64,000 bases of DNA from an uncultured Bacteriovoracaceae bacterium (GCA_964563795.1 CAZLYB010000005.1:2031-66030), one strand, 5' to 3'; shown: positions 34,260 through 54,163, numbered from the stretch's first letter. Notes: generated by a model from the sequence alone, not told the origin. A program made the numbers and translations.

Positions 34260-37200
34260 GTGGGGCGCGATCGATTTTTTTATTTAAAGAAAATTCAAAA
34301 TCATTTGAGGCAAATCCTCGTTTTGACGCTTTGTTTTCAAGTGAGCCTACCTCTCGGCGTGGTCTTGCGTCCCTCCGCTTCCGTCGCGATCGCAGGCCCT
34401 GAAGATGAATTGCGGGAGGTCCTTGCCGGCCTTGATACCACCGACGCGACGCAGCCCCCTCCGCGAGTTGACCCTTCCCATTTGTCTGGGCAGCGGCTCA
34501 AGATTACTCTCTCCGATGGCACCGTTGAGTTTGACGGGTCATTGGATGAGCTCGATCTCAGTCGCCCTTCCATTGCGATCGGGGATTTTTCCAAAGTCCA
34601 AGTCGCCGTTACTCCGGAGGGACTTGTTTTCACGATGTCGCTCAAAGGAGGCAAGATCGCTCAGCAGCTGATTCCACTGCCAGGGATTGTCGCAACGACG
34701 AGATTGCAGGGAGACCGGGAGTTTTTCGCCGTAATGGATGATCAGGGCCGGGTTTTGGTGATGGATGCGGGACTCATGCCTGGAACCCTCTTTGATGCGC
34801 CTCAGCTCGCCAATTTCGTGGTTCAGCTCCGCCTTTCTCCAGGACAAGCGCAGAATGCGCGATTGAACTTCGTCTCAAGGGGATTGAGGCCGGTTTCATC
34901 GGGCTTGGATCAAGTCAGTGACGGGGGAGATTTACTCATCACGGATCATTCCTCAGGGAGCGCGGTTCCGCTTTCAGCTCCGATCAGCCGCGATGTTTTG
35001 CATGCAAAAGTCGCGGAAGCCGAAGCGCTCACCGCGGTGACGAATCTCCTCGCTGGTCCCCGGGCTCAGTCCGGCGGGCTCGTGCGCACCGTGTTTGCTC
35101 TTTTAAGGGATCGTGAATTGGTCGCCGCTTACCGGGAGTTGACCCAGACGATGGATCCCGCTTTAGCTCGCACGTTTCAAAGCTTGAGCACCAGAATGGT
35201 GACGAGCTTGCTCGCTCGAGCCAGCGTCAACCAAAGCCAGCAAACCCAGAACCGCTCTCGAGTGAAGGATCGAATATCGAGGAAAGGGTGGGTCGATTCT
35301 TATGAAAAGATTCAGGCGAAGGCCCGGCAGATGCTTGAGAGAAAGAATAGCTTTTTTCAAAAAGTCAGGCAGAAGATCGGCTTTTACAAAAACGGCGAGC
35401 TGACCCCAGCGTTAGCCGAGAATATGCAGGCAGGACTGGACAACGGTGATTTTGCCGAGATGACGCCGCTTTTGATCGAAGCCGTCTTGAAAGACGCGAC
35501 CCAAGGTAAAAAAACATGGAAGGATTTTTTGACTCCCCAAGTCTTGCGCTGGTCCGCGGCTTTGGCGGGAGGAGTCGCAGTCGGAGCAGGTTCAGGATGG
35601 ATGATGCGGCATGGTTTCATGCCGCATTGGATTCAATTCACGCTTCATCGCGCTTATCACCTCTTTACGCCCGATGTCCTTCAGGATCGCCCCTACAGTA
35701 TTACGCTTTTGAAAAGCGCGGCCTCGCTCGTGACTCTGACGATTCCCGTCATGTTCACGCTGACGTGGGCGGCTTCAGCGATGATGAGATGGAAGCTGGG
35801 TCCCAGTGGCGCTTTTGTGAGGACGGGCAATCGACTCAATGCCGAGGTTTTTTATCCAATTTATCATCGGTTGATCGGGTTTTTTAGGCAACCCAATCTC
35901 ATGGTGGCGGCGCAAAATGATCTTCCTTCCAGCAGAAGAGTCACCCCGAGTTCAACGTTAGGGCAGAGGTTTAATCTCGATCAAAACTTTCGCCTAGGGC
36001 TGATGAATCCTTTTCAAAGCCGAGAGTCATTCGAAGCTGAAAAAGAGTTGAAATTAAAGCTTCTGACTGGGGCTGCCCGAGCTGAGCAAGACCGTCGAGC
36101 AACCGCCATGGCCCTGGCTTTGATGATCGTGAGCACCGAGAACGGCGAGATCGATCCTGCGGCGCTGGCCATCGCGATCGGGGAAAGCGGGGATTCAGGC
36201 GTGATTCCTGAGACGATTTATGCGCGTTTAGCGGAGGACCCCGCGCTTTGGAAAAAGTACGAGCAAGCGCATGAAGAGCTCATTCGCATGATGGAACGGC
36301 TTCAACTCAATGGCGCCCCTCTGCTGAGCCAAATCGACCCTCAGGAGCTCAGTCATTATTTATCGGCGGCTCAGGTCGTCGCGCGGCAATTGACGGTGGA
36401 GAAAAACAAGCCCGTGCTTGAAAAGTGCGCTCGGCTTTGGAGAAAGGCGACTCGAGCGCTGAGAGTGGGGAGCGCGAGTTTTGCGGTGAATGAGCGCCGC
36501 TTTTTGAAAGTTTATGAGGCGAGTGATTTCGTCAAGCGGCTCGTGACCCAGTCTTACATTATCGACCAGCTCATCGTTATTTTTCAGGTGGCCTTATTTA
36601 GCGAACGCGCGAACCTCAAAAATCCTTCAGCTCTCTTTGCGGATGCGAATGGCCCAGCTTACACGAATAAGGGTTTTTTCGCGGAGATGATCGAACAAAC
36701 TTTGATCGGCTGGCTGGCCTTTAGCTCTCAAATCGCGCTCGTGTATGGAAGGGCGGCTAAAATTACGGAATCTCGTTACGATGCGCCTCAGTACCAAGAG
36801 TCTTTGGGGGATGAAAAGACGGAGAGTTTTTTTAGCGGCATCCTGGATTATGTCATGAACGCCCTTAACCTCAAAGAGGCCGATTATGCGCGGCGAGTCT
36901 TTTTGAAGCGCCTTACGAGCAGCCTCAGCACAGTCCAATCGGGCTGGATCTTTGGTGTCTTTTCTCGAGTTGCTTCCGGCGTGCAGACCTTCACTCAGGC
37001 TCAGCTGCCTTGGCTAGCAGTCTACATCGCAAGCACCCCGGTTTTTGGATGGATCTGGGGATTGTCACGAGGGCTTGAAATGTCCGAGGATAAAATGGGC
37101 GCGCGAAAAGAAGAGTGGGACAATATCCGCGTCAGACTCATGCAAGGATTGGAGATCCAGGATGACGCTCAGATTCGAAGCGCTGTCCAAGAACTCAGGG

Positions 37201-37778
37201 CCATCTACGCCCGGGAAGGCGTCGCGCTCCCTGAGGTTTTGCAGACGAATCTCGCGCAGGTGGAGCAGTTTTTCTCGCTCTCCGGATCTGAGCGCGTGCT
37301 CGTGAATGACTGGTTCAATGAGGGGATCAAAGCGCTGATGGAGCTCGATCGGGCTCTCCACGCTGAGGAAGGAGGCGATGAAGCGGTCGCCCAGGCGGAG
37401 GCTCAGCTTCGGGCGCGATATCAGGAGAGCCCAATAGAACTTTTGGAGCGCGTGAATCAGCTGCGGGGGGAGGCGCTTTTGGAGTACGCCCGAAAAAATC
37501 CCCCTTATAACACTAAAATTCATGGTCTCGTGAGTTGGGGAGTGAATGCTTTTATCGCGATCGCAACCACGATGCTTGCGGTTCCGCTTTACGTTTTTTC
37601 ATTCAGGCCCGATGTGAATTGGGGGTTTTGGTTGCCTGCCATGACCGCTTATGCGGGCGCGTTTTATACGAGCGCCTATTATGGGCTAGATTACCTGGCG
37701 AAAAAATTCCCGCTTTTCCGAGGCGAAGTCGACCCCCGCAAGACCTGGAGCCGCTGCCGGCAAGCGCTCCGGCTTTAA
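34260..37778 (+). CDS. Large (1172 aa) polytopic membrane protein, unknown function
   Basis: A single long ORF with a GTG start and an N-terminal signal/anchor. It has several hydrophobic clusters around residues 430-520, 800-830, 900-950 and 1100-1150, separated by helical soluble regions. I recognise no catalytic motifs. Confidence 0.6.
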   Translation: MGRDRFFYLKKIQNHLRQILVLTLCFQVSLPLGVVLRPSASVAIAGPEDELREVLAGLDTTDATQPPPRVDPSHLSGQRLKITLSDGTVEFDGSLDELDLSRPSIAIGDFSKVQVAVTPEGLVFTMSLKGGKIAQQLIPLPGIVATTRLQGDREFFAVMDDQGRVLVMDAGLMPGTLFDAPQLANFVVQLRLSPGQAQNARLNFVSRGLRPVSSGLDQVSDGGDLLITDHSSGSAVPLSAPISRDVLHAKVAEAEALTAVTNLLAGPRAQSGGLVRTVFALLRDRELVAAYRELTQTMDPALARTFQSLSTRMVTSLLARASVNQSQQTQNRSRVKDRISRKGWVDSYEKIQAKARQMLERKNSFFQKVRQKIGFYKNGELTPALAENMQAGLDNGDFAEMTPLLIEAVLKDATQGKKTWKDFLTPQVLRWSAALAGGVAVGAGSGWMMRHGFMPHWIQFTLHRAYHLFTPDVLQDRPYSITLLKSAASLVTLTIPVMFTLTWAASAMMRWKLGPSGAFVRTGNRLNAEVFYPIYHRLIGFFRQPNLMVAAQNDLPSSRRVTPSSTLGQRFNLDQNFRLGLMNPFQSRESFEAEKELKLKLLTGAARAEQDRRATAMALALMIVSTENGEIDPAALAIAIGESGDSGVIPETIYARLAEDPALWKKYEQAHEELIRMMERLQLNGAPLLSQIDPQELSHYLSAAQVVARQLTVEKNKPVLEKCARLWRKATRALRVGSASFAVNERRFLKVYEASDFVKRLVTQSYIIDQLIVIFQVALFSERANLKNPSALFADANGPAYTNKGFFAEMIEQTLIGWLAFSSQIALVYGRAAKITESRYDAPQYQESLGDEKTESFFSGILDYVMNALNLKEADYARRVFLKRLTSSLSTVQSGWIFGVFSRVASGVQTFTQAQLPWLAVYIASTPVFGWIWGLSRGLEMSEDKMGARKEEWDNIRVRLMQGLEIQDDAQIRSAVQELRAIYAREGVALPEVLQTNLAQVEQFFSLSGSERVLVNDWFNEGIKALMELDRALHAEEGGDEAVAQAEAQLRARYQESPIELLERVNQLRGEALLEYARKNPPYNTKIHGLVSWGVNAFIAIATTMLAVPLYVFSFRPDVNWGFWLPAMTAYAGAFYTSAYYGLDYLAKKFPLFRGEVDPRKTWSRCRQALRL

Positions 37779-37781
37779 AGG

Positions 37782-38828
37782 CTAGCCCACTGACCCGATC
37801 GCGAACTCCCCGACCGGGGGCTCGGTCAACCAATCCGTACGGCTGAGCTTGGCCAAGGTTTGAAAAGGACCATTGCCCAGAGCGCACGCTCCGAGTCCCA
37901 CGGCGCTTGCCGCGAGGTAGAGATTCTGAAAGAGGCCACCCAGCTCCTTTAAGATCAAGGCGTAGGCGAAGTCCTCGTATTTCCAGGCAGTGCGCGCAAA
38001 GCGCGCGGAGATGCTGAAGTGGATCCAGTTGTCGCCGCTGAGGTCCGCCGCGCGCCGGGCTCGATCTCGAAGCTCCCGGGCTTCTTCATTGAAAGGAGAA
38101 AGCATTTCGAGCGCGTGCTCGTTTGAGAGGTAGCGGTAAACGCCGGGCGGGAGGCCTACTGCACCATTTTCTGGGATGACGGGGTAGATTTCGAGCGGAT
38201 ATTTCGCACCTCCGCTGGGGTAGCTACGGTGGGAGGGCTCTCCTTGAGGAATTCCAGAGCGGACTCGGGCTGAAAGATCGAGAAGCGATCCGAGCTGAGA
38301 GAGCGTGAGTGGAGGCCCTGTAAAATCTCTTGCTGAATGCCGTTGGTTAAGAGCCGTCGTGAGATCGAGGGAAATTTCTTTGGCGTCGGGCAAAAAAATG
38401 GGGTTCTCCGTGCGGGACGGTAAATGGGGAGCCTCCTCGGGAATCGCATCGCGGAAACGATAAGTTCCTCCTTTCCCTAAGCGGGATCGCACATGGAATA
38501 GCAGTTCGTGCGGGGTCCAATGTCTCAAGATGTCAGACTCACCTGCGTTATTTTCCCGATCTGCAATCCAGAGGATCTCGTTGCGTTGCAAGTCGGCGAC
38601 GATTTCAGCGAGTTGCGTGGCCGGGAGCGTCGTTTGGATTTCATCGAGGGATGTCGGCGAGGCGAACTGATGAAGTAAACCCAGGATTTCGGGATTCTTA
38701 AGGCGGATGCTTCGAACGGCGGCCGGTGAGGCGATGTGGCATTGGCCATCGAGCCAGGACACCACTGCGAAGCGCGAGACGACATAGCGGATCGGGGCGG
38801 ATAAAGAGGGTTGCATCAGCGTCATCAT
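37782..38828 (-). CDS. SagB-type (nitroreductase-superfamily) FMN dehydrogenase with an N-terminal RRE-like extension
   Basis: 348 aa with blocks typical of SagB/ThcOx-type dehydrogenases: WTPHELLFHVRS, NQRHSARDF, SYPSGGAKYPLEIYPV, GVYRYL..EHAL, KYEDFAYALILKELGGLFQNLYLAASAVGLGACALG. An additional N-terminal domain of about 100 aa precedes them. Confidence 0.75.
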   Translation of the reverse strand: MMTLMQPSLSAPIRYVVSRFAVVSWLDGQCHIASPAAVRSIRLKNPEILGLLHQFASPTSLDEIQTTLPATQLAEIVADLQRNEILWIADRENNAGESDILRHWTPHELLFHVRSRLGKGGTYRFRDAIPEEAPHLPSRTENPIFLPDAKEISLDLTTALNQRHSARDFTGPPLTLSQLGSLLDLSARVRSGIPQGEPSHRSYPSGGAKYPLEIYPVIPENGAVGLPPGVYRYLSNEHALEMLSPFNEEARELRDRARRAADLSGDNWIHFSISARFARTAWKYEDFAYALILKELGGLFQNLYLAASAVGLGACALGNGPFQTLAKLSRTDWLTEPPVGEFAIGSVG

Positions 38829-39094
38829 AATGACCCTGCGGATGATTAGCGAGCTCGAAGAACCTGTCTCCGATGAAAACTAAAAAGGTTTCGAATCTAG
38901 GAAATGAGTTGATGTTCTCAATCAAGATTCAGAAAAATTTTATCAAGCATAAAAATTTAAAATTTAGATAAAAACCTCTGTTTTTAGGCTTTTTTTAACG
39001 CACCGTTAGTTGAACTCGAGTGGCCCATTATTTAACATGTATTTAGCATCACTCAAAAGGGGGGGATGATCCCTTTCTTTTTCCAAAGGAGGAC

Positions 39095-39274
39095 ATGATG
39101 AGGACGCTAAGTTGGATACTGAGTTCTTTTTCGGTCTTAGGGTCGGCAGTCTTGCGGCACGATGGGGCGAAAAATCCAGAGATCTTTGAGATCACCGATC
39201 AGATGGTGGAAGCAGACTTGCTCCCCTATGAAGATTGCAGCCATTGCGGCGGCTGCCGTCGAGGCGATCGCTAA
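39095..39274 (+). CDS. Unannotated 59-aa Cys-rich peptide, candidate RiPP precursor
   Basis: At 59 aa it is below the 60-aa cut-off of the ORF track. Hand translation gives MMRTLSWILSSFSVLGSAVLRHDGAKNPEIFEITDQMVEADLLPYEDCSHCGGCRRGDR, ending at a TAA stop at 39272-39274. An AAAGGAGG Shine-Dalgarno lies at 39085-39092, 2 nt before the first ATG and 5 nt before the second. A 14-bp hairpin follows directly downstream. Confidence 0.65.
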   Translation: MMRTLSWILSSFSVLGSAVLRHDGAKNPEIFEITDQMVEADLLPYEDCSHCGGCRRGDR

Positions 39275-39279
39275 GAAAT

Positions 39280-39323
39280 GCGGACTCCCAGGTTGCGGGG
39301 TTTACCTCGACCTGGGAGTCCGC
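39280..39323 (+). terminator. Perfect 14-bp stem-loop immediately after the peptide gene (attenuator or partial terminator, or a transcript-stabilising hairpin)
   Basis: gcggactcccaggt (39280-39293) is the exact reverse complement of acctgggagtccgc (39310-39323). The loop is 16 nt. The hairpin is followed by tattaatat rather than a clean U-tract. Confidence 0.55.
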
Positions 39324-39389
39324 TATTAATATCGCACGATGAAAGAAGTGCGATGGTTCGAACTGCCCTTTTCCTCGAGGCGATCCACA

Positions 39390-40889
39390 ATGCGATGTCT
39401 CCTTGCGATCCTACCGCTCCTCGGGATGATTGGCGCGAGTTGCCGAAGCGAGCCCGTCACTCAGATTCGATATGTATCTGATTTGCCCCTGCGCACCTCG
39501 ATCAATCTTAGAAATCCAAAACTCGAAACCGAAAATCTGCTCGTGGCGCAGCTTTGGTCGCCGCTCGTGGAGTGGGATGGAGCTAACGAGTTTTTGCCCG
39601 CGATCGCTGACAAGTGGTCGCACGATTTGGAGCGCCGACACTGGGTGTTTCGGATCCGAGAGGGCTTGAAATGGGCCGATGGCTCCGACTTGACTGCGAG
39701 TGCCGTGGTACGATCCTTTGAAGATCTCCTCGCTCGTACGCGGAATCGAGGATTTCGCGATCAAGTAAAGCGAGTGAGGGTATCCCAGTCGAACGAAATC
39801 ACCCTGGATCTGAAGGCCTATAGCGAGCATTTCTTGCCGACATTGACGTGGTTCACCGGCTACATCGCTGATCCGAGCAACTATCGAGACCCCAAAGCCG
39901 GGTTAATCGATCTGAAGGACCCACGCACTCGCTTCAGTGGCCCTTATCGCATCAAACAATGGAATCAGAACCATCTCGAACTTGAGGCGAATCCTCATTC
40001 ACCGGTGGTCGATCCCCATTTAGTTCTGCCGGTTTCCTACCAAGGAGGCGTCCCTCCGACTGAGATGGTTGCCCGGGTCGAGCGCAATGAAGCGGATATT
40101 GCGCGGCTTTACTCGGATTCTGTGCCGACCGCGGAGCTTGAACGCCTTCGGTCCCTGGGGCATCAGACTTTTGGGGATAGTGCTCGGGGCACCGTAGCGG
40201 GTTTCGTCGTTGGACGAGGGGGCGCTGACCGTATTTCTTCTCGGGATCGAAGTTACCTGTTTCGTCGCTTAGTCGAAGCTTTTCGGGAGGACGTGCGCGT
40301 TGGCCGCAAAGATCTCTCCTTGCTTCCGGTGGGGATAACGCCGCCGCTTGCCCAAGGGAGCCTATCGGAGCACGAATGGAATCTCCTCATCGAGGGCCTC
40401 CCAGCCCAGCCCAGCCGACGCTTTACTGTTCAAGTTTTCGTGGCGCGACCCCTCCAATCGGGCTCCGCTTACCAGATCGCGCGACGCGCGTTGATCTCGT
40501 CACCCGTGGATTTTCACGAAGTGGTCTTTGATCCCGAGCGTCCAGAATCGGCCGAGACCAGGCGCCGTGAAAGCGGTGATTTCGATCTTCTTTATTACGC
40601 ACACCCCGTCGATTTTCGCACGTCGGGAGCCATGTGGCAGAAATTTGCGGAAATTCAGGAATATCGTCACCCTCCCTTGACCACCCGCGAGGTCCAGCGG
40701 GTTACTTTAGCGCGGCCCGCGCTTCAGAGCGCCCTCTTCTCAGAATTCGAGAAGAAGAACGCGAGGGACCCTTTCTTCATTCCGCTCTTGAGGGTTTCTC
40801 GGCTCTTGATCGTCAGCAAAAGGCTCAAACTTGCCTCCGACGCCGCGAACCAATACGTCTTACGTTTTTGGAAAGTCCGAAACCAATAA
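39390..40889 (+). CDS. Family-5 (DppA/OppA-like) solute-binding lipoprotein, orphan
   Basis: I chose the start MRCLLAILPLLGMIGASC (lipobox) with GAGG 9 nt upstream. The block ADKWSHDLERRHWVFRIREGLKWADGSDLTASAVVRSFE is typical of SBP_bac_5. No permease or ATPase genes are nearby. The track ORF begins at 39339. Confidence 0.7.
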   Translation: MRCLLAILPLLGMIGASCRSEPVTQIRYVSDLPLRTSINLRNPKLETENLLVAQLWSPLVEWDGANEFLPAIADKWSHDLERRHWVFRIREGLKWADGSDLTASAVVRSFEDLLARTRNRGFRDQVKRVRVSQSNEITLDLKAYSEHFLPTLTWFTGYIADPSNYRDPKAGLIDLKDPRTRFSGPYRIKQWNQNHLELEANPHSPVVDPHLVLPVSYQGGVPPTEMVARVERNEADIARLYSDSVPTAELERLRSLGHQTFGDSARGTVAGFVVGRGGADRISSRDRSYLFRRLVEAFREDVRVGRKDLSLLPVGITPPLAQGSLSEHEWNLLIEGLPAQPSRRFTVQVFVARPLQSGSAYQIARRALISSPVDFHEVVFDPERPESAETRRRESGDFDLLYYAHPVDFRTSGAMWQKFAEIQEYRHPPLTTREVQRVTLARPALQSALFSEFEKKNARDPFFIPLLRVSRLLIVSKRLKLASDAANQYVLRFWKVRNQ

Positions 40890-40906
40890 ATGAAGAGGAG
40901 TTCGGT

Positions 40907-41515
40907 ATGAGTTACCTGAAAAACTTGGAAACCATCCGTAAGAAGCATTTTCCCATGTCTTTTCCCGACGGAAATCAAGCGGTACTCGCGTCATCGGCCG
41001 AGATTGATCGCTTGATGGATTCTCTTTGGAGCAAGGTTTTTGGTTCATTTGATTCGGAGCTCGCCAAATATCAGCTCTCTGTCGAGCGGCGCGACAGGGA
41101 TGCGGAACTCTTCCAAGGTTATTATTCCGCCGTTCACCGGGAAGGCGTGATTTTTCGGAATGCCGCCGGAAACGATTTCGGTTGGTTCTTCGGGGACGCC
41201 GAAGATTTTCATACATTTTATTTAAGAAATGGGGGGTTTGCTCCTGAAGCGAGGGGGGCAGGCATTGCGGGACAGTTCCTAGGCAGGTTTTTAAATTATC
41301 TGCGGGATCTCGGTTATGAGAGAGTGACGGCCCAGGTGCAGCCCAATAATTCGCCCATGCTGATCAGCTATTTGAAGCAGGGTTTTGTCATCGAGGGGAT
41401 GAACCTCGACGAACGTTGGGGGCCTTTGGTGAAATTCCTTTATCTCCTTCATCCTGACCGTCAGGTCGGATTTGAGAAAGTTTTTCGGCTGCGCTCAGTT
41501 CAGTCAAAGGGATGA
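40907..41515 (+). CDS. GNAT-family N-acetyltransferase
   Basis: I chose the start MSYLKNLE with GAGGAG 8 nt upstream. The acetyl-CoA motif context is EARGAGIAGQFLGRFLNYLRDLGYERV...NNSPMLISYLKQGFVIEG. Confidence 0.7.
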   Translation: MSYLKNLETIRKKHFPMSFPDGNQAVLASSAEIDRLMDSLWSKVFGSFDSELAKYQLSVERRDRDAELFQGYYSAVHREGVIFRNAAGNDFGWFFGDAEDFHTFYLRNGGFAPEARGAGIAGQFLGRFLNYLRDLGYERVTAQVQPNNSPMLISYLKQGFVIEGMNLDERWGPLVKFLYLLHPDRQVGFEKVFRLRSVQSKG

Positions 41516-42489
41516 AGCAAGAATCGGTCGGCAGGATGAAACTGGCCTGGGGCACGCCGTTCTCGGGCGCTCTTCACGCGTGGATTGGCCAGATAGAACT
41601 CGCGCGCTGCCACGTAGGGCTGGCTAAAATGGAGCGGCAAAAGCAATTTGTTTTGAGCCTGAATGACAAAGTAACGCGGTGAAAGGGTCTTGAGCCGAGT
41701 AAATCGGGTTGCGGATCGCAAACTGGATGAGTCGATGAGCGTTTCGTCAAAAGAAACCGATGAAGAGGCGCACATTGAGGGGTTCACCCCAAGAATCAGC
41801 TCCAGGAGTCGCGCGACATCGGGTTCCATTGAGATGAGGTGATGCCGAGCCAGGTCGGCATCCCTGGACTTCTTGCTGGGGCAATCCCCTCGCGCGCGGT
41901 GGGCATGCACCGAGGCGAGCCACTCCAGAGTCGCTTTGCGGCTCGCGAATGAAACGCTCGGGCCGGTTCCCATTCCCAAGTGCCAGCAGCCATGCATCGG
42001 CGAACGGCTCGCAGCGAGACAGACCACGATCCCCGGGTCCGCGCTGGAGAGCTGTACGACTCGCAGTTGACCTTCCTGAGTGAGGTTGCGGGCGGTTTCA
42101 ACGAGCGGATGGGGGTGATCGACCTCCCGAGCTGGGGTTTCACTGAGCCAATGGTAGAGCAGGGCGTCACGCTCGACGAGTTCCGCATAGGCGCCTGCCT
42201 TCGCCGATTCTTCAGAAAAGTTGGCTGAAAGCCCTGTGCGACTCTGCAGATCGAGATTGGATTGGGTGATGGCGACGCTCTCTAAAGCCTCCATGAGGCA
42301 GCGAATGGCTTGGACGCGCCGACTTTCGTCAACCGCGCCGCCGAGGAAGTCCTGGTTTGGCCCCAATTTGACGGAAACGAATCCTGCCCACGCCGGCCCA
42401 ATCCGAGTGAGCGTACGCCAAGAGGTTTCTAGGGTAACCCCTGCCATTTTCAGAGCCGTTTGACGGAAAAACCAATCTAATAATTTCAT
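41500..42489 (-). CDS. YcaO-superfamily protein (short, stand-alone)
   Basis: 329 aa with three blocks laid out as in YcaO domains: GGAVDESRRVQAIRCLMEALESVA, then TGLSANFSEESAKAGAYAELVERDALLYHW, then VVCLAA....HLGMGTGPSVSFASRKATLEWLASV. The C-terminus ends ...LLHPFD. The 3' end overlaps the GNAT gene by 16 nt in convergent orientation. Confidence 0.65.
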   Translation of the reverse strand: MKLLDWFFRQTALKMAGVTLETSWRTLTRIGPAWAGFVSVKLGPNQDFLGGAVDESRRVQAIRCLMEALESVAITQSNLDLQSRTGLSANFSEESAKAGAYAELVERDALLYHWLSETPAREVDHPHPLVETARNLTQEGQLRVVQLSSADPGIVVCLAASRSPMHGCWHLGMGTGPSVSFASRKATLEWLASVHAHRARGDCPSKKSRDADLARHHLISMEPDVARLLELILGVNPSMCASSSVSFDETLIDSSSLRSATRFTRLKTLSPRYFVIQAQNKLLLPLHFSQPYVAAREFYLANPRVKSARERRAPGQFHPADRFLLHPFD

Positions 42490-42527
42490 AGTTGACTATT
42501 TGCGTCAATTCTTCTATTCCTCGCCCT

Positions 42528-44699
42528 ATGATGGAGGAATCGCCTCATTTTTTGACCTATTTCTACGCGCGCTTTCGCAGAGTGGTGCCGGTCATGGGAG
42601 GGGTCGTTCTCTGTTTGGCGATCGGAGTCGCCGCAAGTATCTGGCTCCGTCACACTCAAGTTCGGTATGCCTTGCAGCAGTTTGTACTTGCGTCGTCGTA
42701 CGAAGAGAATCCTCGAACTGTTCATAGTTACCTTCGTCTCGTTCACTCCACCGTCCAGGCCGCGCTGAACTCCGGATCTTTGGGGGATTCGAAGTGGGTT
42801 GGGGCCGCCTCGTTGACCCTCGTTCTTTGTCAGTCGGGAACCGTCGTGGCGCGATTCCCTATTTGGGATGTTACGGGAACGTGGTCCTGTCAGGGAGATA
42901 AGAATTATGAAGTGGGTGCCCTGCGGATCCGAACTCCTGTGCCATTCATTGGAGAGAACGTTGTCTTGGAAGCACGGGCTGTCGCACCCTGGATCGATGC
43001 CTGGTCAGTCTCGATTGGCACCTCACTCCTCCTTTTGGGCCTCACCATTTGGGGAATTGCATACCGGAGCCGACGCGAGCGCTGGCAAATCCACTCCGTA
43101 TTCCAATGCTTGGACCATGATCTGGCCGACATCCCCCCGATGACTTCCAAAATGCCGATCTGGCCCCATTGGACGCCTCAGGCGGTCGTCTTTCTGCGAG
43201 AAAAAATCTTGCAACTCCGAAAGCGTCTGCAGACCTTACAGGAAGAGCAGTCTCGGGCGCGGGCGGATGCGGCGGTTGGCGAGGTAGCCGAACAAGTGGC
43301 CCATGATATTCGTTCCCCTCTGACGGTTCTTGAATACGCCTCGCGTGAACTCTCAGAGATTCCCGAGGGGAAAAGGGTTCTTTTTTACAATGCCGTCAGT
43401 CGGATTCGGGCGATCGCCACCGACTTGGGCCATATGAGCGAAGGACTCAAGGGCGAGGACGGCTCATCCGTGGTGAGTCGCCGATCTGCGGAGCGACCAG
43501 TGGAAGCTTCCCCTCTTTTGCCGATACTCCAAGAAATCCTGGCGGAAAAACGGGTTCAATACATCGGCCGTCCTGGCCTTAAGTTCGAATTGGTTCTTGA
43601 GGAATCCGCCTATCATCAATTCGTCAAAGTCCGCGTCGATGACTTCAAACGCATTCTTTCGAACCTGATCAATAATTCGGCCGATTCCATTGCAGCGGCA
43701 GGGGTCATTCAAGTTAGGGTGGAGAGGGATTCGGCGGAGGTGCGGGTGTCGATTTCAGATACCGGCCGAGGAATTCCCGCTGAGATTTTGGAGCGACTTG
43801 GAACTCGGGGAGCCAGCTTCGAAAAGCCTGGTGGGATGGGGCTGGGCCTTTATCATGCCCGTCGCTGCATCGAAGATTGGTCTGGGGTCTTGGAGATCCA
43901 GTCGAATCCTGGGTGCGGAACGACCATTGGGCTTCGTCTGCAGGCGGTCACGCCGCCTCGCTGGTTTTTGCCTCGCCTTTCCATCCCAGCGAATTCCACG
44001 TTCGTCATTGTGGATGATGACCCTTCCATTCACGCTCTCTGGGAAGAGCGATTTTCGTCGTTTCATGAAAATGGAAAGGGCACTCGGTTCGAACTCCTGC
44101 ATTTTCATTCGGCGCCTGATTTCACCCTCTGGATGACGGACCGAAAGCTTCCGGAGACCCGTTCGGGACTTCGCTTCTTGATTGATCTCGATTTAGGCAA
44201 GGGCTCATCCAGCGGTCTTGAGTTGATCAAGGCCCATGATTTGCGCCGTCATGTGACGTTGGTCACCAGCCGGCACGATGATTCCCAAGTCCGCGAGCAA
44301 TGTGTGGCCTTGGGCTGCACTCTGCTTCCGAAGTGCTGCGCCGAGCGAATTCCGATTGAATTCGCCAATCCCGTTGAGCATTGGGACGCCATTTTAATCG
44401 ATGACGATCCGGAAATTCGCTGGATGTGGGGGGAAGTCGCCTTGCAGACGCATCATCGATTCCGCAGTTTCGAATCGGTGCAGTCCTTTCTAGCCATAAT
44501 CGATGAGATCAGCTTCGATACGCCGATCTATGTGGATTCTCGGCTCGGAGATGGCCTGCGCGGCGAAGACCTGGCGCAGGAACTTCGAGTGCGTGGGTTT
44601 ACCAAGATTTACCTGACCACGGGCTTGCCTCACGCGCATTTTCCACAAATGTCTTGGGTGGATTCTATTGTCGATAAGCGGGCGCCCTGGGCTTTGTGA
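42528..44699 (+). CDS. Hybrid sensor histidine kinase with two C-terminal receiver domains
   Basis: Two N-terminal TM segments, H-box VAHDIRSPL, HATPase blocks (NLINNSADS, DTGRGIP, GGMGLGLY). Two REC-like domains follow (VIVDDDPS...FLIDLDLG...LVTS...LPK and ILIDDDPE...IYVDSRLG...LTTG...VDK). The start is uncertain; the track ORF starts at 42492. Confidence 0.8.
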   Translation: MMEESPHFLTYFYARFRRVVPVMGGVVLCLAIGVAASIWLRHTQVRYALQQFVLASSYEENPRTVHSYLRLVHSTVQAALNSGSLGDSKWVGAASLTLVLCQSGTVVARFPIWDVTGTWSCQGDKNYEVGALRIRTPVPFIGENVVLEARAVAPWIDAWSVSIGTSLLLLGLTIWGIAYRSRRERWQIHSVFQCLDHDLADIPPMTSKMPIWPHWTPQAVVFLREKILQLRKRLQTLQEEQSRARADAAVGEVAEQVAHDIRSPLTVLEYASRELSEIPEGKRVLFYNAVSRIRAIATDLGHMSEGLKGEDGSSVVSRRSAERPVEASPLLPILQEILAEKRVQYIGRPGLKFELVLEESAYHQFVKVRVDDFKRILSNLINNSADSIAAAGVIQVRVERDSAEVRVSISDTGRGIPAEILERLGTRGASFEKPGGMGLGLYHARRCIEDWSGVLEIQSNPGCGTTIGLRLQAVTPPRWFLPRLSIPANSTFVIVDDDPSIHALWEERFSSFHENGKGTRFELLHFHSAPDFTLWMTDRKLPETRSGLRFLIDLDLGKGSSSGLELIKAHDLRRHVTLVTSRHDDSQVREQCVALGCTLLPKCCAERIPIEFANPVEHWDAILIDDDPEIRWMWGEVALQTHHRFRSFESVQSFLAIIDEISFDTPIYVDSRLGDGLRGEDLAQELRVRGFTKIYLTTGLPHAHFPQMSWVDSIVDKRAPWAL

Positions 44700-44715: not shown

Positions 44716-45438
44716 CTATTGGAGGGGGGCTGCCGATGGGTTCGCGAGCTGCGTGCTCACCCCATTGCCTGAAAGCGCGTAGAGATCCGGCGGTGAAAAC
44801 CGGATTTCCAAGTTCAGCGGCATCAATTTGCGGCGCAGGTTGAAGAGATGGACATCCAGGGTTTTGCTGCTGATGGAGATGTTTTTCCAGACCTGCGAGA
44901 GGATTTCCTTGCGGGTGATGCCATGGGTCTTCGCGCGGTGGAGCATTGAGAAAATTTGAAGCTCCTTCGCGGTCAATTGAGCGAAGGAATTCTCATTGCG
45001 GCGGATGGCGAGCTCAGTGGGGTCGAAGAAAACGCCGGGAAAGCAAGAAGCCTTCTCCTGCTTGCTCATGAGGCGCTCGACTTTGACGATGAGCTCCGCT
45101 TTTGTGAAGGGCTTGGTGAGGTAATCAGCGGCGCCTTCATTGAAGCAGGTTCTGAGAATGTCGAGATCATCGCATGAGGAGACGATGATGATGGAGCAGG
45201 AAAGGCTTTTGACCTCGGACTCCTTGCCCAAAAAACTCAAAAAGTTGCCATCCGGAAGCCTGAGGTCGGCGACTAGAAGATCCGGCGTTTCGCCCGGCTT
45301 CATTTCCTTCAGCGCATTTTTTAAATCACCTAAGTTTGAGAACGATCGGTAACGATACCGCAGCTCGAGAATCTCGCGATACACGAACTCGACATCAGAG
45401 TCATCTTCGAGCACCCAAATCACTTGTTCTGACTTCAT
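44716..45438 (-). CDS. OmpR/PhoB-type response regulator
   Basis: I chose the start MKSEQVIWVLEDD, which overlaps the kinase stop (ATGA). It has a REC domain (LLVADLRLPDG) plus a winged-helix output (LTAKELQIFSML...SSKTLDVHLFNLRRKL). Confidence 0.85.
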   Translation of the reverse strand: MKSEQVIWVLEDDSDVEFVYREILELRYRYRSFSNLGDLKNALKEMKPGETPDLLVADLRLPDGNFLSFLGKESEVKSLSCSIIIVSSCDDLDILRTCFNEGAADYLTKPFTKAELIVKVERLMSKQEKASCFPGVFFDPTELAIRRNENSFAQLTAKELQIFSMLHRAKTHGITRKEILSQVWKNISISSKTLDVHLFNLRRKLMPLNLEIRFSPPDLYALSGNGVSTQLANPSAAPLQ

Positions 45439-47114
45439 GGTAAAACCTCGCTCCAGTGTTCTAATGGAGTATTTCGCGTAAGTCCCGTGCTTTGAGCAAG
45501 GGGCATCATCAGCCAAAAACTTGTACCCGGTCTATTTTGATCCACTATTGAGAGTTGCCCCCCGTGATTCTCGATCAACCGCCGAGTCAATCTCAATCCG
45601 AGGCCACGCTTGGATCCTGATTTGAGATCGACTCCATTCTGGTCATTGGAAATAAACTTTTCAAATTCGGCGGCGCTTAGCCCTGTGCCGTTATCGCTGA
45701 TGGTTAGCTCTATGAAAAAGGGATTCAGGGCTTGAAGGCGAACCTGAATTTGAGGGTCATGGGTCCGATGGCTGAAGAGATTCTCAAGGCTATTGCGGTA
45801 AAGATTGTCGAGGATGTGTACCAAATCCAAGGGAGCGATTTTAACCGTTAATGAAGCGAGTTCAGGAGAGCAAGTGAATCGTGCTTTCTTAAAATCCTCG
45901 GGCCCAAATTGAAGCTCCAGGAGTTTCATCACATTTTGGTGGGCTTCCATGAAGTTGGTTTCTGAGTGGGCTATGGAAGGGTTTTTGCCGTGAGTCTTCA
46001 AGGACGTCACCAGCTGTTGGATGCGATTGAAGTTGGCGCTCAATTTTTCGAGATAAAGACCGCGACGGGGGGAGTCGGGGCTCTCCGTCAGCTCATTCAA
46101 GACGTAGCTCGCCGCATGCAGCGGACCGCTCAGGTCGTGGGCGATGAGCGCCGACATCTCCCCGAGTTGCTTGTAGCGGTTTTTCTCGGATTCCTCGATC
46201 ACCACGAGCGCAAGCTCCCGCTGGCTGAGTTTGAGCCTCTTGCTGAGCAGGTTGTAAGAGCTTTCGAACTTGGCGAGCAAAGGCGAGGTGTGCGAGGGAA
46301 GCGTCACAAGATCCCCGTTGAAATCCATCCGATCCATCTGATGAAAGAGCTCCATGAGCGCTTGAATGAAGGAGCTTCTTGCGAGGTACCAAATTCTGCC
46401 GAAGAGGGCCGCCCCCAAGGCGGCGATCAGCGTCATAGCGAGCAAGGTAGGGGTGCGCTCAGTGAACAAGTTGGAATGGAGAGTCATGATTTGCAGGCTC
46501 AACGTGAAGAAGGCGATGGAGATCAAGGAGATGATCTCATGGTTCTTGAATTGTTCCTGACCTTTCAAAAGCTCGAAGGCTTCGGAGAAATCAAAGCGCT
46601 CATGAAGCTCCCGGATCTTTCGCGAGAGGAAAATATGCGAATCCAGGAACGATGCTCCGTAGAAGTAGCAGAGGTTCACGGCCATGATCCCCAGCATCAT
46701 CAATGCTTGCTCCTGATTGCTGATGGAGTGTTTCCAGAAAAAAATCACGATGAGGAGGGCAGGAAGCGCTCTCAAGAAACTCCCGCCACAGAGAAACTTC
46801 GCGCGTCGGGCGGGAAATCTCGAGAACGATTCGAGAAGGGTTTTTTTCTGAGAGGTGCCAAAGTGCTGAATCTGACTGAAGTCGAGTTCGGGGAAGAACG
46901 AAGCGCTCTCCGGGTAAAGCCATAAAAATCCTCTGCGGTCGATGGCTCTAAAGACCGCATATGAGAGGGCATCCACGGCCATCATGACGAAAAATTCGAG
47001 CAGAGAGGGTCTGAGCAAAAGAATGATCGGCGGGGCGAAGCCCAGGTAAATGAACAACCAGCTCAAAGGGCTGACGCAATCGGATAGGGATCGTTGGCGT
47101 GGGAATTTGAGCAT
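45435..47114 (-). CDS. Membrane sensor histidine kinase
   Basis: 559 aa with a polytopic N-terminus, H-box IAHDLSGPL and HATPase blocks (NLYRNSLEN, DNGTGL, GLGLRL). Confidence 0.85.
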   Translation of the reverse strand: MLKFPRQRSLSDCVSPLSWLFIYLGFAPPIILLLRPSLLEFFVMMAVDALSYAVFRAIDRRGFLWLYPESASFFPELDFSQIQHFGTSQKKTLLESFSRFPARRAKFLCGGSFLRALPALLIVIFFWKHSISNQEQALMMLGIMAVNLCYFYGASFLDSHIFLSRKIRELHERFDFSEAFELLKGQEQFKNHEIISLISIAFFTLSLQIMTLHSNLFTERTPTLLAMTLIAALGAALFGRIWYLARSSFIQALMELFHQMDRMDFNGDLVTLPSHTSPLLAKFESSYNLLSKRLKLSQRELALVVIEESEKNRYKQLGEMSALIAHDLSGPLHAASYVLNELTESPDSPRRGLYLEKLSANFNRIQQLVTSLKTHGKNPSIAHSETNFMEAHQNVMKLLELQFGPEDFKKARFTCSPELASLTVKIAPLDLVHILDNLYRNSLENLFSHRTHDPQIQVRLQALNPFFIELTISDNGTGLSAAEFEKFISNDQNGVDLKSGSKRGLGLRLTRRLIENHGGQLSIVDQNRPGTSFWLMMPLAQSTGLTRNTPLEHWSEVLP

Positions 47115-49114: not shown

Positions 49115-50092
49115 ATGGCCAAGCGCATGACGGATTCGGAAAAATGGGGCAAACAGTGGTTTAGACTTTTACGGCCCAAACTCAAATGCATGTGGGAATA
49201 CCTGCGAGACAACTGTGATCTCGCGGGCATCTGGAGCGAGGACTACGGGCTCGCATCGTTTCAGATTGGCGACGACATTACCTGGGAGGAAGTTCAAGAA
49301 GCCTTCGGTGAGCGTGTTGTCCGAATCGGCAAAGACAAAATTTTCCTGCCTGGCTTCATCGAATTTCAATACGGCACCTTGTCGGAAGACTGCAAGCCGC
49401 ACATTGCTGCCATCAAAGCCCTGCGCAAGCACGGTATTGACCCTGTAAGCCTTACCCTATCCAAAGAAAAACAAACTCTGATTCCTGAAACCCCGACCGA
49501 TCCAAAGGGTTCCCAAACCCTTACCGAAGGGTTTGCAAAGGGTATGGATACCCTTAAAGACAAAGATAAAGACAAGGAGACGGATCAAGATAAAGAAAAG
49601 GATCAAGATAAAGAAAAAGGCGAAAAAACTTTAACGCAGGAAGCTACGCCTGCGGAAGATCCGCCACCGAAAAAGCCCGCAAAGAAATCCCCACCGAAGC
49701 CACCCCAGGACATTGACCTGCCAGAGATTGCCTTGCTCTGGAATGAACTCATTGACGAGCGTTTGCCCAAGATTCGGGAGATGGCCCATAATAGCGCCCG
49801 CCGAACTGCCTGCGACAAGCGATGGGATGAGCGGCCCGACCGCGCCTATTGGACTTCGGTCATCGAAAAAATTAACTCGACGCCTTTTTGCCTCGGCACG
49901 AACAAGCGCGGTTGGAAGGCCGACATCGAGTTTCTGACCCGACCCGATAACCACGCCAAAATTCTCGAAGGCAAATACGACTGGTCCGCGCCGCACGCGA
50001 ACGGTCTAGCTGGCCGAACGAAAACCACGCACGAACGAACTGAAAGCCTCGATGCCCAAATCGACGCGATGATGTCGGAGGATTTGCAATGA
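49115..50092 (+). CDS. Phage replication initiation / replisome-organiser-like protein
   Basis: 325 aa. The N-terminus (SEKWGKQWFRLLRPKLKCMWEYLRDNCDLAGIW) resembles phage replisome organiser N-domains. A DK/E-rich linker follows, then a C-terminal domain ending TRPDNHAKILEGKYD. The RBS GGGGGAAGG precedes the ATG. Confidence 0.5.
   Translation: MAKRMTDSEKWGKQWFRLLRPKLKCMWEYLRDNCDLAGIWSEDYGLASFQIGDDITWEEVQEAFGERVVRIGKDKIFLPGFIEFQYGTLSEDCKPHIAAIKALRKHGIDPVSLTLSKEKQTLIPETPTDPKGSQTLTEGFAKGMDTLKDKDKDKETDQDKEKDQDKEKGEKTLTQEATPAEDPPPKKPAKKSPPKPPQDIDLPEIALLWNELIDERLPKIREMAHNSARRTACDKRWDERPDRAYWTSVIEKINSTPFCLGTNKRGWKADIEFLTRPDNHAKILEGKYDWSAPHANGLAGRTKTTHERTESLDAQIDAMMSEDLQ
49583..49618 (+). repeat. 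18-nt tandem duplication inside the DK-rich linker of the replication gene
   Basis: gatcaagataaagaaaag (49583-49600) is followed by gatcaagataaagaaaaa (49601-49618). Together they encode DQDKEK DQDKEK. Confidence 0.85.
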
Positions 50093-50973
50093 ACCAGCAA
50101 ACACTCACGCCCCCCGTTGCACCCGAACTCCGGTGCGAAGCCTGCAACAAGCCACGCACTCCGCGACTCAAACCAGGCTGGGAAGCAAACTACAAGCCAG
50201 GCTCTATCGTGCCCGCGGCGTTTGCCGTCGTGCTTTGCTACGAGTACGACGAACATCCCGAGTGCGCCTCCTCCGTCGAAAGAATTCGCATCGACGAAGA
50301 CCGCCGTCGCAAGGCTGAAGAAATTCAAAAACAACGCACAGACCGGCTCACGCAATGGAAACAGCGCCCGAACTTTCCGCGAGACCTCGATCGCAAAACC
50401 TTCCAGACGTTCAAGGTCATTCCGGAAAACGAGCGTGTCGTGCGATTGCTTCAAAGCTGGCGATCAAACGACGATTTCGGATTTCTTCTCATGGGGCCTG
50501 CGGGCTGCGGAAAAAGCCATCTCGCCTTGGCGTTCGCTCAATCGGTCGCACACCAAATTCTTGCTCGTAGCACGCAAGCGCCGCTTCCGGCCTACTACCC
50601 GGTAACGGAACTTCTCGCTGAAATCAAGCGCGGTGACTTTGAGCTTCCGGATCGCGTGCGCAGTTCAGCGCCGGTGATTCTGGACGACCTCGGCACCGAG
50701 CACATTACCGAGTGGAGCCGTGAAGTTTTTTATCGCGTCTTCGATTACCGCCTCAGTCAACGATTTCCAACGATCGTCACGACGAACCTGACAATGGACG
50801 AGCTGAAGGAACGGCTGCATGAACGCATCGTTTCTCGGATCATCGGCCAGTGCATCCCGCTCACGATGAAAGGCAAAGATCATCGGAGCGAAGAAATCAT
50901 GGCTAGGTTCCGCATGATCTCCGCCCGTGCTGGAACCACGCTGCCCGCAAAGAGGGAGGCGACCAGCGCATGA
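50089..50973 (+). CDS. DnaC/IstB-like AAA+ helicase loader
   Basis: 294 aa with Walker A LLMGPAGCGKSHLA and Walker B PVILDDLGTE, plus a TTNL sensor block. It is coupled to the upstream gene by an ATGA overlap. Confidence 0.8.
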   Translation: MNQQTLTPPVAPELRCEACNKPRTPRLKPGWEANYKPGSIVPAAFAVVLCYEYDEHPECASSVERIRIDEDRRRKAEEIQKQRTDRLTQWKQRPNFPRDLDRKTFQTFKVIPENERVVRLLQSWRSNDDFGFLLMGPAGCGKSHLALAFAQSVAHQILARSTQAPLPAYYPVTELLAEIKRGDFELPDRVRSSAPVILDDLGTEHITEWSREVFYRVFDYRLSQRFPTIVTTNLTMDELKERLHERIVSRIIGQCIPLTMKGKDHRSEEIMARFRMISARAGTTLPAKREATSA

Positions 50974-51152
50974 GCCAAACCAATTTCTCCCACAACCACA
51001 CATTCGCGCGAGCTGGTGTTTGTTCCCCATTCACCAGTTCCGCGAAGGACGGCGAGCGCCCTGAATCCATGTTGCCGCATGCTCAGGAAGCCGGAACCAA
51101 AAGCTCCGGTCAGCTCGCCGTCTTCTTTTCTTCAACACGGAGGACACGATGA
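50970..51152 (+). CDS. Small hypothetical protein
   Basis: 60-aa ORF whose start and stop each overlap the neighbouring genes by 4 nt (ATGA-type). Support comes only from this coupling pattern. Confidence 0.3.
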   Translation: MSQTNFSHNHTFARAGVCSPFTSSAKDGERPESMLPHAQEAGTKSSGQLAVFFSSTRRTR

Positions 51153-51400
51153 ACTCTGCTCAAGGAATTCAAGGAAATGGAAAAACTTTCAGTGGACCAA
51201 GCTCTGTATGTCTTATTTGCAAACGAGTTCTACGCCATCCACGTTCTATCGCTATTGGCATGGGAAAAACTTGTGGCCGGAAATTTCCTGGCACGTATGA
51301 ACGCCTGGCTCACGAGGCGGAAGGCCAACAAAGTTTCATCGCCGATTCCGGATGCGTGAAGAATCCCGATGACAGCGGTTCAGGAGGTTCGCAATGTTGA
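51149..51400 (+). CDS. DUF6011-like small Cys protein
   Basis: 83 aa. CLICKRVLRHPRSIAIGMGKTCGRKF resembles the C-x2-C...S...G-x-G-x-x-C signature I recall for phage DUF6011 proteins. Confidence 0.4.
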   Translation: MNSAQGIQGNGKTFSGPSSVCLICKRVLRHPRSIAIGMGKTCGRKFPGTYERLAHEAEGQQSFIADSGCVKNPDDSGSGGSQC

Positions 51401-51729
51401 AGTCTCTCAAGATCGTTGACTACTTCGACACGCCTGAAGTCTTGGATGCTTCGATTACGGCGATCCCCGGTAACGCGAGTTCGCCTCTTCAAGTGATCGC
51501 TTCACTCGCAAAAACATCTTACCAACTCATCGTCGCGGATTCCGCGCAGCAAATGGTCGGCGTCTACAAGGGGGCTTCGGGACAAGAGCAGCTTGAATGC
51601 ATCATTGGCCCAGGCGTTCGCGAAGTCGATGTCTCACTTCACCGCGGAACTCGGATCAGTTTGCGTTCGATGACTCCTGATCCGGTGAACTACGGTCAGC
51701 TCTGCTTACAGTTCTTGGGGGATACCTAA
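51394..51729 (+). CDS. Phage hypothetical protein (beta-rich)
   Basis: 111-aa ORF in the coupled chain. Confidence 0.45.
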   Translation: MLKSLKIVDYFDTPEVLDASITAIPGNASSPLQVIASLAKTSYQLIVADSAQQMVGVYKGASGQEQLECIIGPGVREVDVSLHRGTRISLRSMTPDPVNYGQLCLQFLGDT

Positions 51730-52023
51730 ATGGTCAAAGGCATTTTTGAAATTCTCAACAAGATTTTCAATTCAGGCACGAACGCTCTGAAAGTGGAAGG
51801 CACGCTTTCGACTGCGGATGCGATTTACGCCACGCGAGTCGATGAAGTTTCCGCCTCGCTTACTTACGTCGGCAAAGCGCTTGCCGGCACTTCCGATTCG
51901 GACCCTCTTTGGCAGGTTCAGCGAATTCAAGTTTCAGGTGCAGTGACAACCGTTCAATTTGCCGATGGCAATACGAACTTTGACAACATTTGGGCTAACC
52001 GCGGAAGCCTATCTTACTCGTAA
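51730..52023 (+). CDS. Phage hypothetical protein (beta-rich)
   Basis: 97-aa ORF that starts on the base after the upstream stop. Confidence 0.45.
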   Translation: MVKGIFEILNKIFNSGTNALKVEGTLSTADAIYATRVDEVSASLTYVGKALAGTSDSDPLWQVQRIQVSGAVTTVQFADGNTNFDNIWANRGSLSYS

Positions 52024-52036
52024 AGGGGGAAAAGAC

Positions 52037-52447: not shown

Positions 52448-52449
52448 TC

Positions 52450-53900: not shown

Positions 53901-53910
53901 GGAACTGACA

Positions 53911-54153: not shown

Positions 54154-54163
54154 GGGGAACAAA

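Follow-up and report, generated by a model that had tools for sequence, protein, structure and literature searches.

Within a 64,000-nucleotide (64-kb) stretch of DNA from an uncultured Bacteriovoracaceae bacterium (GCA_964563795.1 CAZLYB010000005.1:2031-66030; hereafter the window, by which we mean the whole stretch), we found a minimal YcaO gene that belongs, very probably, to a conserved unit consisting of a small Cys-containing peptide gene, a gene for a lipoprotein of the family-5 solute-binding proteins (SBPs), the YcaO gene and a gene for a hybrid sensor histidine kinase. An earlier note on this DNA had described positions 37782-42489 as a candidate azol(in)e locus of peptides made on the ribosome and modified after translation (RiPPs) with YcaO and a SagB-type dehydrogenase as its core. 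The open reading frame (ORF) map and the domain scans placed all six elements listed in that note where it had put them, but the kinase, which is part of the conserved unit and lies just outside those coordinates (42492-44699), had been overlooked, and the proposed core did not hold, as the SagB gene is missing from seven other loci of the YcaO family. The locus is better described as a peptide-modification and sensing cassette that gained an azoline oxidase in the window lineage. Its genes suggest a RiPP-based autocrine, quorum or metal-reporting circuit rather than an antibiotic factory, a reading to which we give slightly less than an even chance. All of the evidence is computational, and its base is eight lineages.

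Relatives of the window YcaO are few. A word-indexed homologue search of 5.8 billion clustered proteins returned two, with 41-43% identity, and a profile made from five family sequences found hardly more relatives than the word-indexed search with a single sequence. Exhaustive HMMER searching of 1.84 billion representatives yielded 13 proteins at E <= 1e-30. The family is rare (about ten lineages), its complete members have 330-341 amino acid residues, and every member bearing a source name is annotated as 'hypothetical protein'. When metagenome contigs were scanned with the family alignment, the generic ELxERDA pattern was recovered, and among the matches listed there were only distant, mostly long YcaOs. 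Scanning of genome contigs gave two loci from metagenome-assembled genomes (MAGs) of Bacteriovoracaceae, of which L005 carries the cassette and L006 a short-YcaO cluster of another kind. In total, family DNA was recovered from eight lineages besides the window, and the neighbouring genes were visible in seven of these.

The histidine kinase, YcaO and SBP genes are adjacent in all eight lineages whose flanks allow the test. Kinase orthologues with 31-34% identity, the periplasmic part included, stand next to the YcaO gene in L001, L003, L005, L036, L037, L040 and L044. The SBP gene is convergent with the YcaO gene in six lineages; in the two others (L005 and L041/42) the two genes are co-directional and abut each other in an operon-like manner. 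The SBP had been regarded as an unusual member of the locus, but an orthologous SBP adjoins the YcaO in every locus with enough flanking sequence. The neighbourhood comparison revealed no other gene common to the cassette loci, nor any metal-resistance or metal-transport gene conserved with the cassette. Transposase genes (Mu-like, DDE and IS91 fragments) lie directly beside the cassette in L001 (13135-14823) and in L005 (5292-5702 and 11028-11585), and such surroundings suggest a location in variable regions and possible mobility of the cassette. L041 contains the beginning (5' end) of a gene for 16S rRNA (~1855-2286), ~530 nt downstream of P0125, a member of the family, and this fragment could place that lineage taxonomically.

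The 329-residue protein encoded at 41500-42489 on the minus strand is a genuine but minimal YcaO without an E1 domain or a RiPP recognition element (RRE). PF02624 matches it with 49.3 bits against a cutoff of 25.7, covering residues 82-218 only, and a local hidden Markov model (HMM) scan found it to be the sole YcaO in the window. Among the NCBIfam models, the SagD family fits best (34 bits), and the thioamidation family methan_mark_1 scores 12 bits. A profile search of the PDB sequences with the YcaO family returned no YcaO, and fold comparison alone succeeded. The AlphaFold2 model (pLDDT 84, pTM 0.86) was matched by Foldseek to the M. kandleri YcaO first (6ci7, E 3e-11), then to the E. coli YcaO, the M. 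jannaschii YcaO, LynD and McbD (4q86, 6pe3, 4v1v and 6gos), and the confident matches were all YcaOs. Thus the earlier assignment of this protein stands on both profile and fold. The motifs ExxE (E67/E70), ExxERD (E103/E106/R107/D108) and KxxxE (K185/E189) are kept, and the C-terminus is HPFD, a motif that reads HP(F/I)D in the family with H326 and P327 invariant. All of these residues (E67, E70, E103, E106, R107, D108, K185, E189, H326 and P327) are invariant in the family and common to the canonical YcaOs of 376-433 residues. The acidic motifs are what we take to be the ATP/Mg2+ site, in line with published work on E. coli YcaO. The AlphaFold2 model contains no winged helix-turn-helix domain, and the only RRE-like element in the window is the ThcOx domain of the SagB-type protein. 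Five further residues (C168, W169, H197, C203 and H217) are invariant in the family and not in canonical YcaOs, and the Cys and His residues among them may form a metal site.

Another, RiPP-like type of short-YcaO cluster was seen in L006 (8491-13983) and L020 (4642-10582), where a PqqD/RRE protein, a YcaO of 278-324 residues, a SagB-like protein and a JmjC/cupin protein are encoded. L020 has the PqqD/RRE fused to a Cys-rich core ending in YASYCACNCCSYCDNCTCSDC and additionally encodes an HTTM-like membrane protein; in L006 a secreted Cys-rich repeat protein of 174 residues is encoded directly upstream of the YcaO. These neighbouring short-YcaO clades are clearly peptide-directed.

The putative substrate of the window YcaO is a peptide of 59 residues encoded at 39095-39274 (plus strand), the hidden Cys-rich peptide gene of the earlier note. 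It was recognised by its ribosome-binding site (AAGGAGG, 5 nt upstream of the start), its position and its architecture; Pfam and NCBIfam gave no match to it. The product consists of a Sec-signal-like N-terminus (MMRTLSWILSSFSVLGSA, followed by VL) with a predicted cleavage site after Ala18, an acidic linker and a Cys-rich C-terminus (DCSHCGGCRRGDR), the ORF ending in CSHCGGCRRGDR. Small ORFs on the same strand directly upstream of the SBP gene were found in all five loci (the window, L001, L003, L036 and L037) in which DNA upstream of the SBP gene is available and free of the divergent kinase gene. The five ORFs encode 49-93 residues, and each has a strong Shine-Dalgarno (SD) sequence. The N-termini begin with one basic residue or two, and the Trp at position 6-7 is invariant, after which come a hydrophobic stretch of 15-18 residues, an AXA-like site and a polar linker. 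The C-termini are variable, with two to four Cys residues (DCSHCGGC, DCSSCG, DCGCGECFNC, CSTPLLCCADC and LCDAFGICLVC). The N-terminus is better conserved than the variable Cys-rich core, and the spacing of the Cys motifs is not conserved. Conservation among the peptides is, as far as their sequences indicate, mainly positional and architectural, and a conserved N-terminus joined to a hypervariable Cys-rich end bears the hallmarks of RiPP precursors. The expectation that the peptide gene would recur in syntenic loci was borne out for position and architecture in five of five loci, but sequence homology was weak and no peptide gene was detectable in L005.

We also searched the window and the loci (373 kb) for ORFs with an ATG start, an SD sequence, a length of 40-120 residues, a hydrophobic N-terminus, a basic residue among the first eight and at least two Cys after residue 25. 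Eight ORFs passed this filter and five of the eight were the cassette peptides, a contrast that is somewhat inflated because the filter was devised after the peptides had been seen. Chance is not a credible source of the five peptide ORFs. A peptide HMM found no second copy in any locus. Downstream of the YcaO gene in L005, one ORF was considered as a peptide candidate and rejected, as it is antisense to an IS91-type transposase fragment. In L037, a secreted protein of 373 residues with a papain-like active-site motif (QGSAGYCYAYAA) is encoded next to the gene for the 93-residue peptide (11025-12146, minus strand), and it may be a periplasmic processing protease of that lineage only.

The SBP gene of the window is likely to be 39390-40889 (plus strand) within the ORF 39339-40889, and its product matches PF00496 with 75 bits. 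The Cys residue at the end of the signal sequence (lipobox) is invariant in five orthologues, so we regard the protein as a lipoprotein. Its best relatives in the PDB are the metal or metallophore binders CntA, AapF and NikA (E 1e-22 to 1e-20), and OppA-type relatives are only slightly behind (1e-18 vs 1e-22); its ligand could therefore be a peptide alone or a peptide-metal complex. No ATP-binding cassette (ABC) permease or ATPase gene accompanies the SBP gene in the 64-kb window, in the 21-kb L001 or in the 17-kb L037, and the SBP is putatively a periplasmic receptor for the peptide or a peptide-metal complex. The kinase, encoded at 42492-44699 (plus strand) divergently from the YcaO, has 735 residues (PF02518, 72 bits), with two transmembrane segments around a periplasmic domain, the HisKA and HATPase domains and C-terminal receiver-like domains. 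A pair of Cys residues in the periplasmic part (residues ~100-160; motif LCxGxxVxASVPRW...C) is present in six of the seven orthologues, L005 being without it, and this pair could be a disulfide or a metal- or thiol-sensing site. An OmpR-type response regulator and a histidine kinase are encoded together at 44716-47114 (minus strand), convergent with the cassette kinase, and this pair is not conserved in the other loci.

The dehydrogenase of the window, encoded at 37782-38828 (minus strand), is a SagB/ThcOx-type flavin mononucleotide (FMN) azoline oxidase of 348 residues according to TIGR03605, PF00881, PF22767, PDB and fold matches. The TIGR03605 match has 136.4 bits (cutoff 78.4); PF22767, the RRE-like ThcOx domain, matches the N-terminus with 52.7 bits and is followed by the nitroreductase-fold domain matched by PF00881. 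The top PDB sequence match is ThcOx/CyaGox (E 1.8e-36), and with the AlphaFold2 model Foldseek gave ThcOx (E 3e-24) and then the thiazoline oxidases BmdC and McbC, so that the solved relatives matched are azoline oxidases only. The protein has a GGAKYP motif, the family motif PSGGxxYP being intact as YPSGGAKYPLEIY, and R201, Y203, G207, L212 and E213 are invariant across 11 relatives. The Lys-Tyr of the PSGGxxYP motif is presumably part of the active site, in line with published work on BcerB. This gene is the only SagB that the local HMM scan found in the window, and its codon usage and GC content are host-like without a foreign sign. Its nearest relatives lie in classical clusters with fused E1-YcaO proteins of 730 residues and small precursors that have hydrophilic leaders. 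The local HMMs detected no SagB in any of the seven other loci of the YcaO family that were examined; the oxidase is a lineage-specific accessory outside the conserved cassette.

Between the SBP and YcaO genes lies a gene for a GNAT-type acetyltransferase of 202 residues (probably 40907-41515, plus strand), which has a weak PF00583 match (23.7 bits vs a cutoff of 20.7) and no NCBIfam match. With a GC content of 0.50, which is lower, it is the only mildly atypical gene in the composition analysis, and like the SagB gene it is missing from the seven other loci. The four domain families on which the earlier description drew (PF02624, TIGR03605, PF00496 and PF00583) all gave matches that were above the cutoff or significant. 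Its list of missing parts was also correct: among the 47 window ORFs covered by the Pfam scan there was no E1/ThiF protein, C39 peptidase, ABC exporter or ABC permease, and domain scans found no other dedicated leader peptidase and no major facilitator superfamily (MFS) exporter in the locus. The enzymes on which it built its azol(in)e RiPP locus are real and the chemistry is plausible; what did not stand is the picture of a stripped-down cluster for linear azol(in)e-containing peptides (LAPs), as the SagB and GNAT genes are not conserved and the N-terminus of the peptide is Sec-like.

The SagB and peptide genes have a common divergent promoter region, the AT-rich intergenic region 38829-39094. 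It contains two sigma-70-like matches on the minus strand, which are no commoner than in shuffled sequence, and scans of this region for repeats and promoters gave nothing above chance. Immediately upstream of the ribosome-binding site of the peptide gene, at 39056-39076, lies a small GC hairpin (AAAGGGGGGGATGATCCCTTT) with a T-run after it, which may serve as an attenuator or have no meaning. A far more stable hairpin, with a main stem of 16 bp, lies between the peptide and SBP genes on the plus strand (39280-39323); its folding energy is -39 kcal/mol (z -7.4), and none of 200 shuffles folded as well. The strong hairpin that had been reported after the peptide gene is thus real; partial termination or stabilisation of the mRNA is its probable role. 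L037 has a comparable hairpin, and L001, L003 and L036 have none; being present in two of five loci, it is not a conserved feature. Rfam gave no match in the window, nor around this hairpin.

According to domain scans the window is chromosomal, encoding PolA, SHMT and fabHDGF. Genes for DUF4423, an S8 protease, trypsin-like proteases and SLT hint at a Bdellovibrio-like organism, and the suspicion of a predatory or deltaproteobacterial-type host agrees with DUF4423, with the many secreted proteases and with the only named relatives being Bacteriovoracaceae MAGs. A predicted membrane protein of 1172 residues without a Pfam or NCBIfam match is encoded at 34260-37778 (plus strand), convergent with the SagB gene, and is not kept beside the cassette in the other loci. 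AbiEi/AbiEii-type toxin-antitoxin genes are found at the edge of the window (201-962, minus strand) and also near the cassette in L037 (2471-4587). In the region 49115-63662, about twelve ORFs of 150-500 residues, none with a Pfam match, come after a gene for an IstB-like ATPase (50089-50973); this region may be a mobile element or a prophage remnant.

From gene anatomy, synteny and precedent we infer that the peptide is the substrate of the YcaO, that the chemistry is azoline formation, and that Sec export, binding by the SBP and signalling from the SBP to the kinase follow. In this proposal, the peptide would be synthesised with an N-terminal Sec-type signal sequence. The stand-alone YcaO in the cytoplasm would use ATP to activate the backbone amides beside the C-terminal Cys residues and cyclise them to thiazolines; modification before export is proposed by analogy with the bufferins, and cyclodehydration to thiazoline is suggested by the Cys-rich cores, by SagD as the best NCBIfam match and by the identity of the added tailoring enzyme as an azoline oxidase. 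In the window lineage only, the ThcOx/SagB-type flavoprotein would oxidise the thiazolines to thiazoles, and the GNAT might add a further acyl group. The modified peptide would then leave by the general Sec pathway with removal of its signal sequence, be captured, perhaps in complex with a metal, by the orphan SBP lipoprotein in the periplasm, and cause the SBP to relay a signal to the neighbouring hybrid kinase. A sensor that depends on a binding protein, rather than an importer, is suggested because the SBP has no ABC genes in any locus and the kinase is always adjacent. In its most specific form, with a thiazol(in)e peptide whose Sec signal replaces the classical leader acting, alone or metal-loaded, as the SBP ligand that switches the kinase, this proposal is possible and on the whole doubtful.

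Several observations weigh against such a circuit. Homology among the five peptides is weak, and in leave-one-out HMM tests only two of the five were recovered at rank 1. The Sec signal was called by hydropathy and inspection, and synteny is the one tie between the peptide and the YcaO. The most distant cassette, L005, which is flanked by insertion sequence (IS) fragments, keeps the kinase, SBP and YcaO genes and has no detectable peptide gene. The YcaO scores 34.1 bits with TIGR03604 (SagD), far below the cutoff of 219, and its top fold match is a thioamide-forming YcaO, which leaves room for thioamidation. It has no E1-like or RRE partner that would account for substrate recognition. Azole formation cannot be the general chemistry of the cassette because the SagB gene occurs in only one of eight loci. 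Finally, adjacency is the sole ground for signalling from the SBP to the kinase, and the SBP could feed a distant Opp- or Nik-type permease.

It may be, as a first alternative, that the YcaO-modified Cys peptide is a bufferin-like metal buffer that chelates Cu, Ni or Zn in the periplasm, with the SBP and kinase handling or reporting the metal and not the peptide as a signal. This overlaps with the sensing circuit and is inseparable from it in silico. The Sec-signal-like precursor with CxxC-type motifs, the kinship of the SBP with CntA, AapF and NikA as its best solved relatives, the conserved Cys pair in the periplasmic domain of the kinase, and a cupredoxin and a cytochrome c encoded in the L037 neighbourhood are all in line with it, and the bufferins are a precedent (PMC11626156). 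But the cassette has no conserved association with genes for metal resistance or metal transport, the SBP is only a little closer to NikA-type than to OppA-type relatives (1e-22 vs 1e-18), and the Cys spacing is unconserved; we consider a metal buffer unlikely.

A classical antibiotic cluster of the LAP or thiazole/oxazole-modified microcin (TOMM) type, in which YcaO and SagB make a thiazole toxin while uptake or self-protection is the task of the SBP and GNAT, has several points in its favour: a genuine YcaO and a genuine azoline oxidase are encoded at most 4.7 kb from a C-terminal core rich in Gly, Cys and Ser, the closest SagB relatives belong to classical clusters, and N-acetylation by a GNAT is known from goadsporin. 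The other loci of the family lack SagB and GNAT, whereas the SBP and kinase are always there. Moreover, the window is without an E1/RRE partner and without genes for a leader protease, an exporter or immunity, the N-terminus of the peptide is hydrophobic and signal-like whereas the precursors of the SagB relatives have hydrophilic leaders, and the core has only three Cys residues and one Ser. These differences make an antibiotic cluster improbable.

The absence of a detectable peptide gene from L005, where the kinase, SBP and YcaO genes remain, could also mean that the YcaO modifies a protein such as the SBP or the kinase ahead of its export or insertion, or has a role outside RiPPs, the peptide being an unmodified secreted or membrane peptide and SagB a leftover from a cluster since lost. 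In L005 and L041/42 the genes for the SBP and the YcaO are translationally adjacent, the best fold match modifies a protein (thioamidation of McrA), and the peptides are barely alignable, all of which would fit. Yet five lineages have a peptide gene with a strong SD sequence at the corresponding position; the SagB gene is intact, with host-like composition, conserved motifs and a promoter region common with the peptide gene; and the neighbouring short-YcaO clades are peptide-directed. Such another substrate seems to us quite improbable. That the same cassette works by the same logic with a YcaO installing thioamides or an amidine instead of azolines is very improbable, for although thioamide (McrA) and amidine (bottromycin) chemistry typically involves stand-alone YcaOs that have no E1 partner and the M. 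kandleri YcaO is the top Foldseek match, no TfuA or sulfur-delivery gene was found among the window ORFs scanned, the only co-located tailoring enzyme in the window is an azoline oxidase, the cores are Cys-rich in all lineages, and the SagD match (34 bits) exceeds that of methan_mark_1 (12 bits).

If the circuit with a modified peptide, a binding protein and a sensor kinase exists, the family of ~330-residue YcaOs working without an E1-like or RRE partner would be a new minimal YcaO clade, and for YcaO substrates to travel by the general Sec pathway would be new. A RiPP enzyme and its peptide would be coupled in a fixed manner to a binding protein and a sensor kinase, serving signalling or metal sensing and not antibiosis, and the cassette would be the first YcaO-based circuit with a RiPP as autoinducer or reporter in bacteria that are Gram-negative and probably predatory. 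Confirmation would, in addition, be a first way into the biology of modified peptides in Bdellovibrionota-like bacteria. With only four genes, reconstitution is simple and the hypothesis directly testable, and the window is a natural 'plus oxidase' variant able to report on the chemistry. Full-text literature searches turned up neither a YcaO linked to an SBP and a kinase nor a YcaO precursor with a Sec signal.

Among known systems, the LAP/TOMM clusters (McbBCD of microcin B17, SagBCD of streptolysin S, and goadsporin) resemble the window locus in having a YcaO, a SagB/McbC-type FMN dehydrogenase and a gene for a Cys/Gly/Ser-rich core, and that of goadsporin also encodes a GNAT. Unlike them, the window locus has no E1-like/Ocin-ThiF (C) protein, fused RRE, leader protease or ABC exporter; its YcaO is ~100 residues shorter and below the SagD HMM cutoff, its precursor has a signal-peptide-like N-terminus, and its YcaO is conserved with the SBP and kinase and not with SagB. 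ThcOx/CyaGox (PDB 5lq4) has 30% identity with the window dehydrogenase, and in both proteins an N-terminal ThcOx-type domain precedes the nitroreductase-fold FMN domain; ThcOx, however, has ~470 residues and two such N-terminal domains, whereas the window protein has 348 residues and one, and the cyanobactin genes of the ThcOx systems (PatA/PatG proteases and a PatD-type heterocyclase) are not in the window. The stand-alone YcaOs (those for McrA thioamidation in M. kandleri and M. jannaschii, and BotC/BotCD) share the compact, partner-independent YcaO domain, but the window locus has no mcr operon, TfuA or bottromycin genes, and the family of its YcaO has invariant Cys and His residues of its own.

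Sec signals on bacterial RiPP precursors are described as highly unusual, and only with the MNIO-modified bufferins has it been demonstrated by experiment that the native producer uses them (PMC11626156, PMC12452194). Bufferin precursors carry a Sec signal, their Cys residues are made into heterocycles in the cytoplasm, and they are then exported by Sec as periplasmic metal binders (PMC11626156, PMC12452194). The window system, as proposed, is like the bufferins or oxazolins in the putative Sec-type signal on its precursor, in the cytoplasmic conversion of Cys to heterocycles and in its action in the periplasm, but the enzyme of the bufferins is an MNIO (DUF692) with a DUF2063 partner instead of a YcaO, and their clusters have no obligate SBP and histidine kinase. 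Neither DUF692 nor DUF2063 was found in the window ORFs scanned. MbnE of the methanobactin operons, YejA, CntA/NikA and the pheromone receptor PrgZ, of the same SBP_bac_5 fold family as the window SBP, are precedents for the binding of RiPPs, azole peptides, metal chelates and pheromones, and YejA, a family-5 SBP, mediates the uptake of the azole peptide phazolicin (PMC10128002). These proteins pass their cargo to ABC permeases, whereas the constant neighbour of the window SBP is a histidine kinase. In this respect the locus is closer to LuxP-LuxQ, TorT-TorS and ChvE-VirA, in which the gene for a periplasmic binding protein stands beside that for a hybrid kinase without transporter genes; those systems differ in belonging to other SBP families, in having small-molecule ligands, and in lacking a peptide gene and a peptide-modifying enzyme. 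The cassette plausibly works like a hybrid of LAP chemistry, bufferin-type Sec export and LuxP/LuxQ-type sensing.

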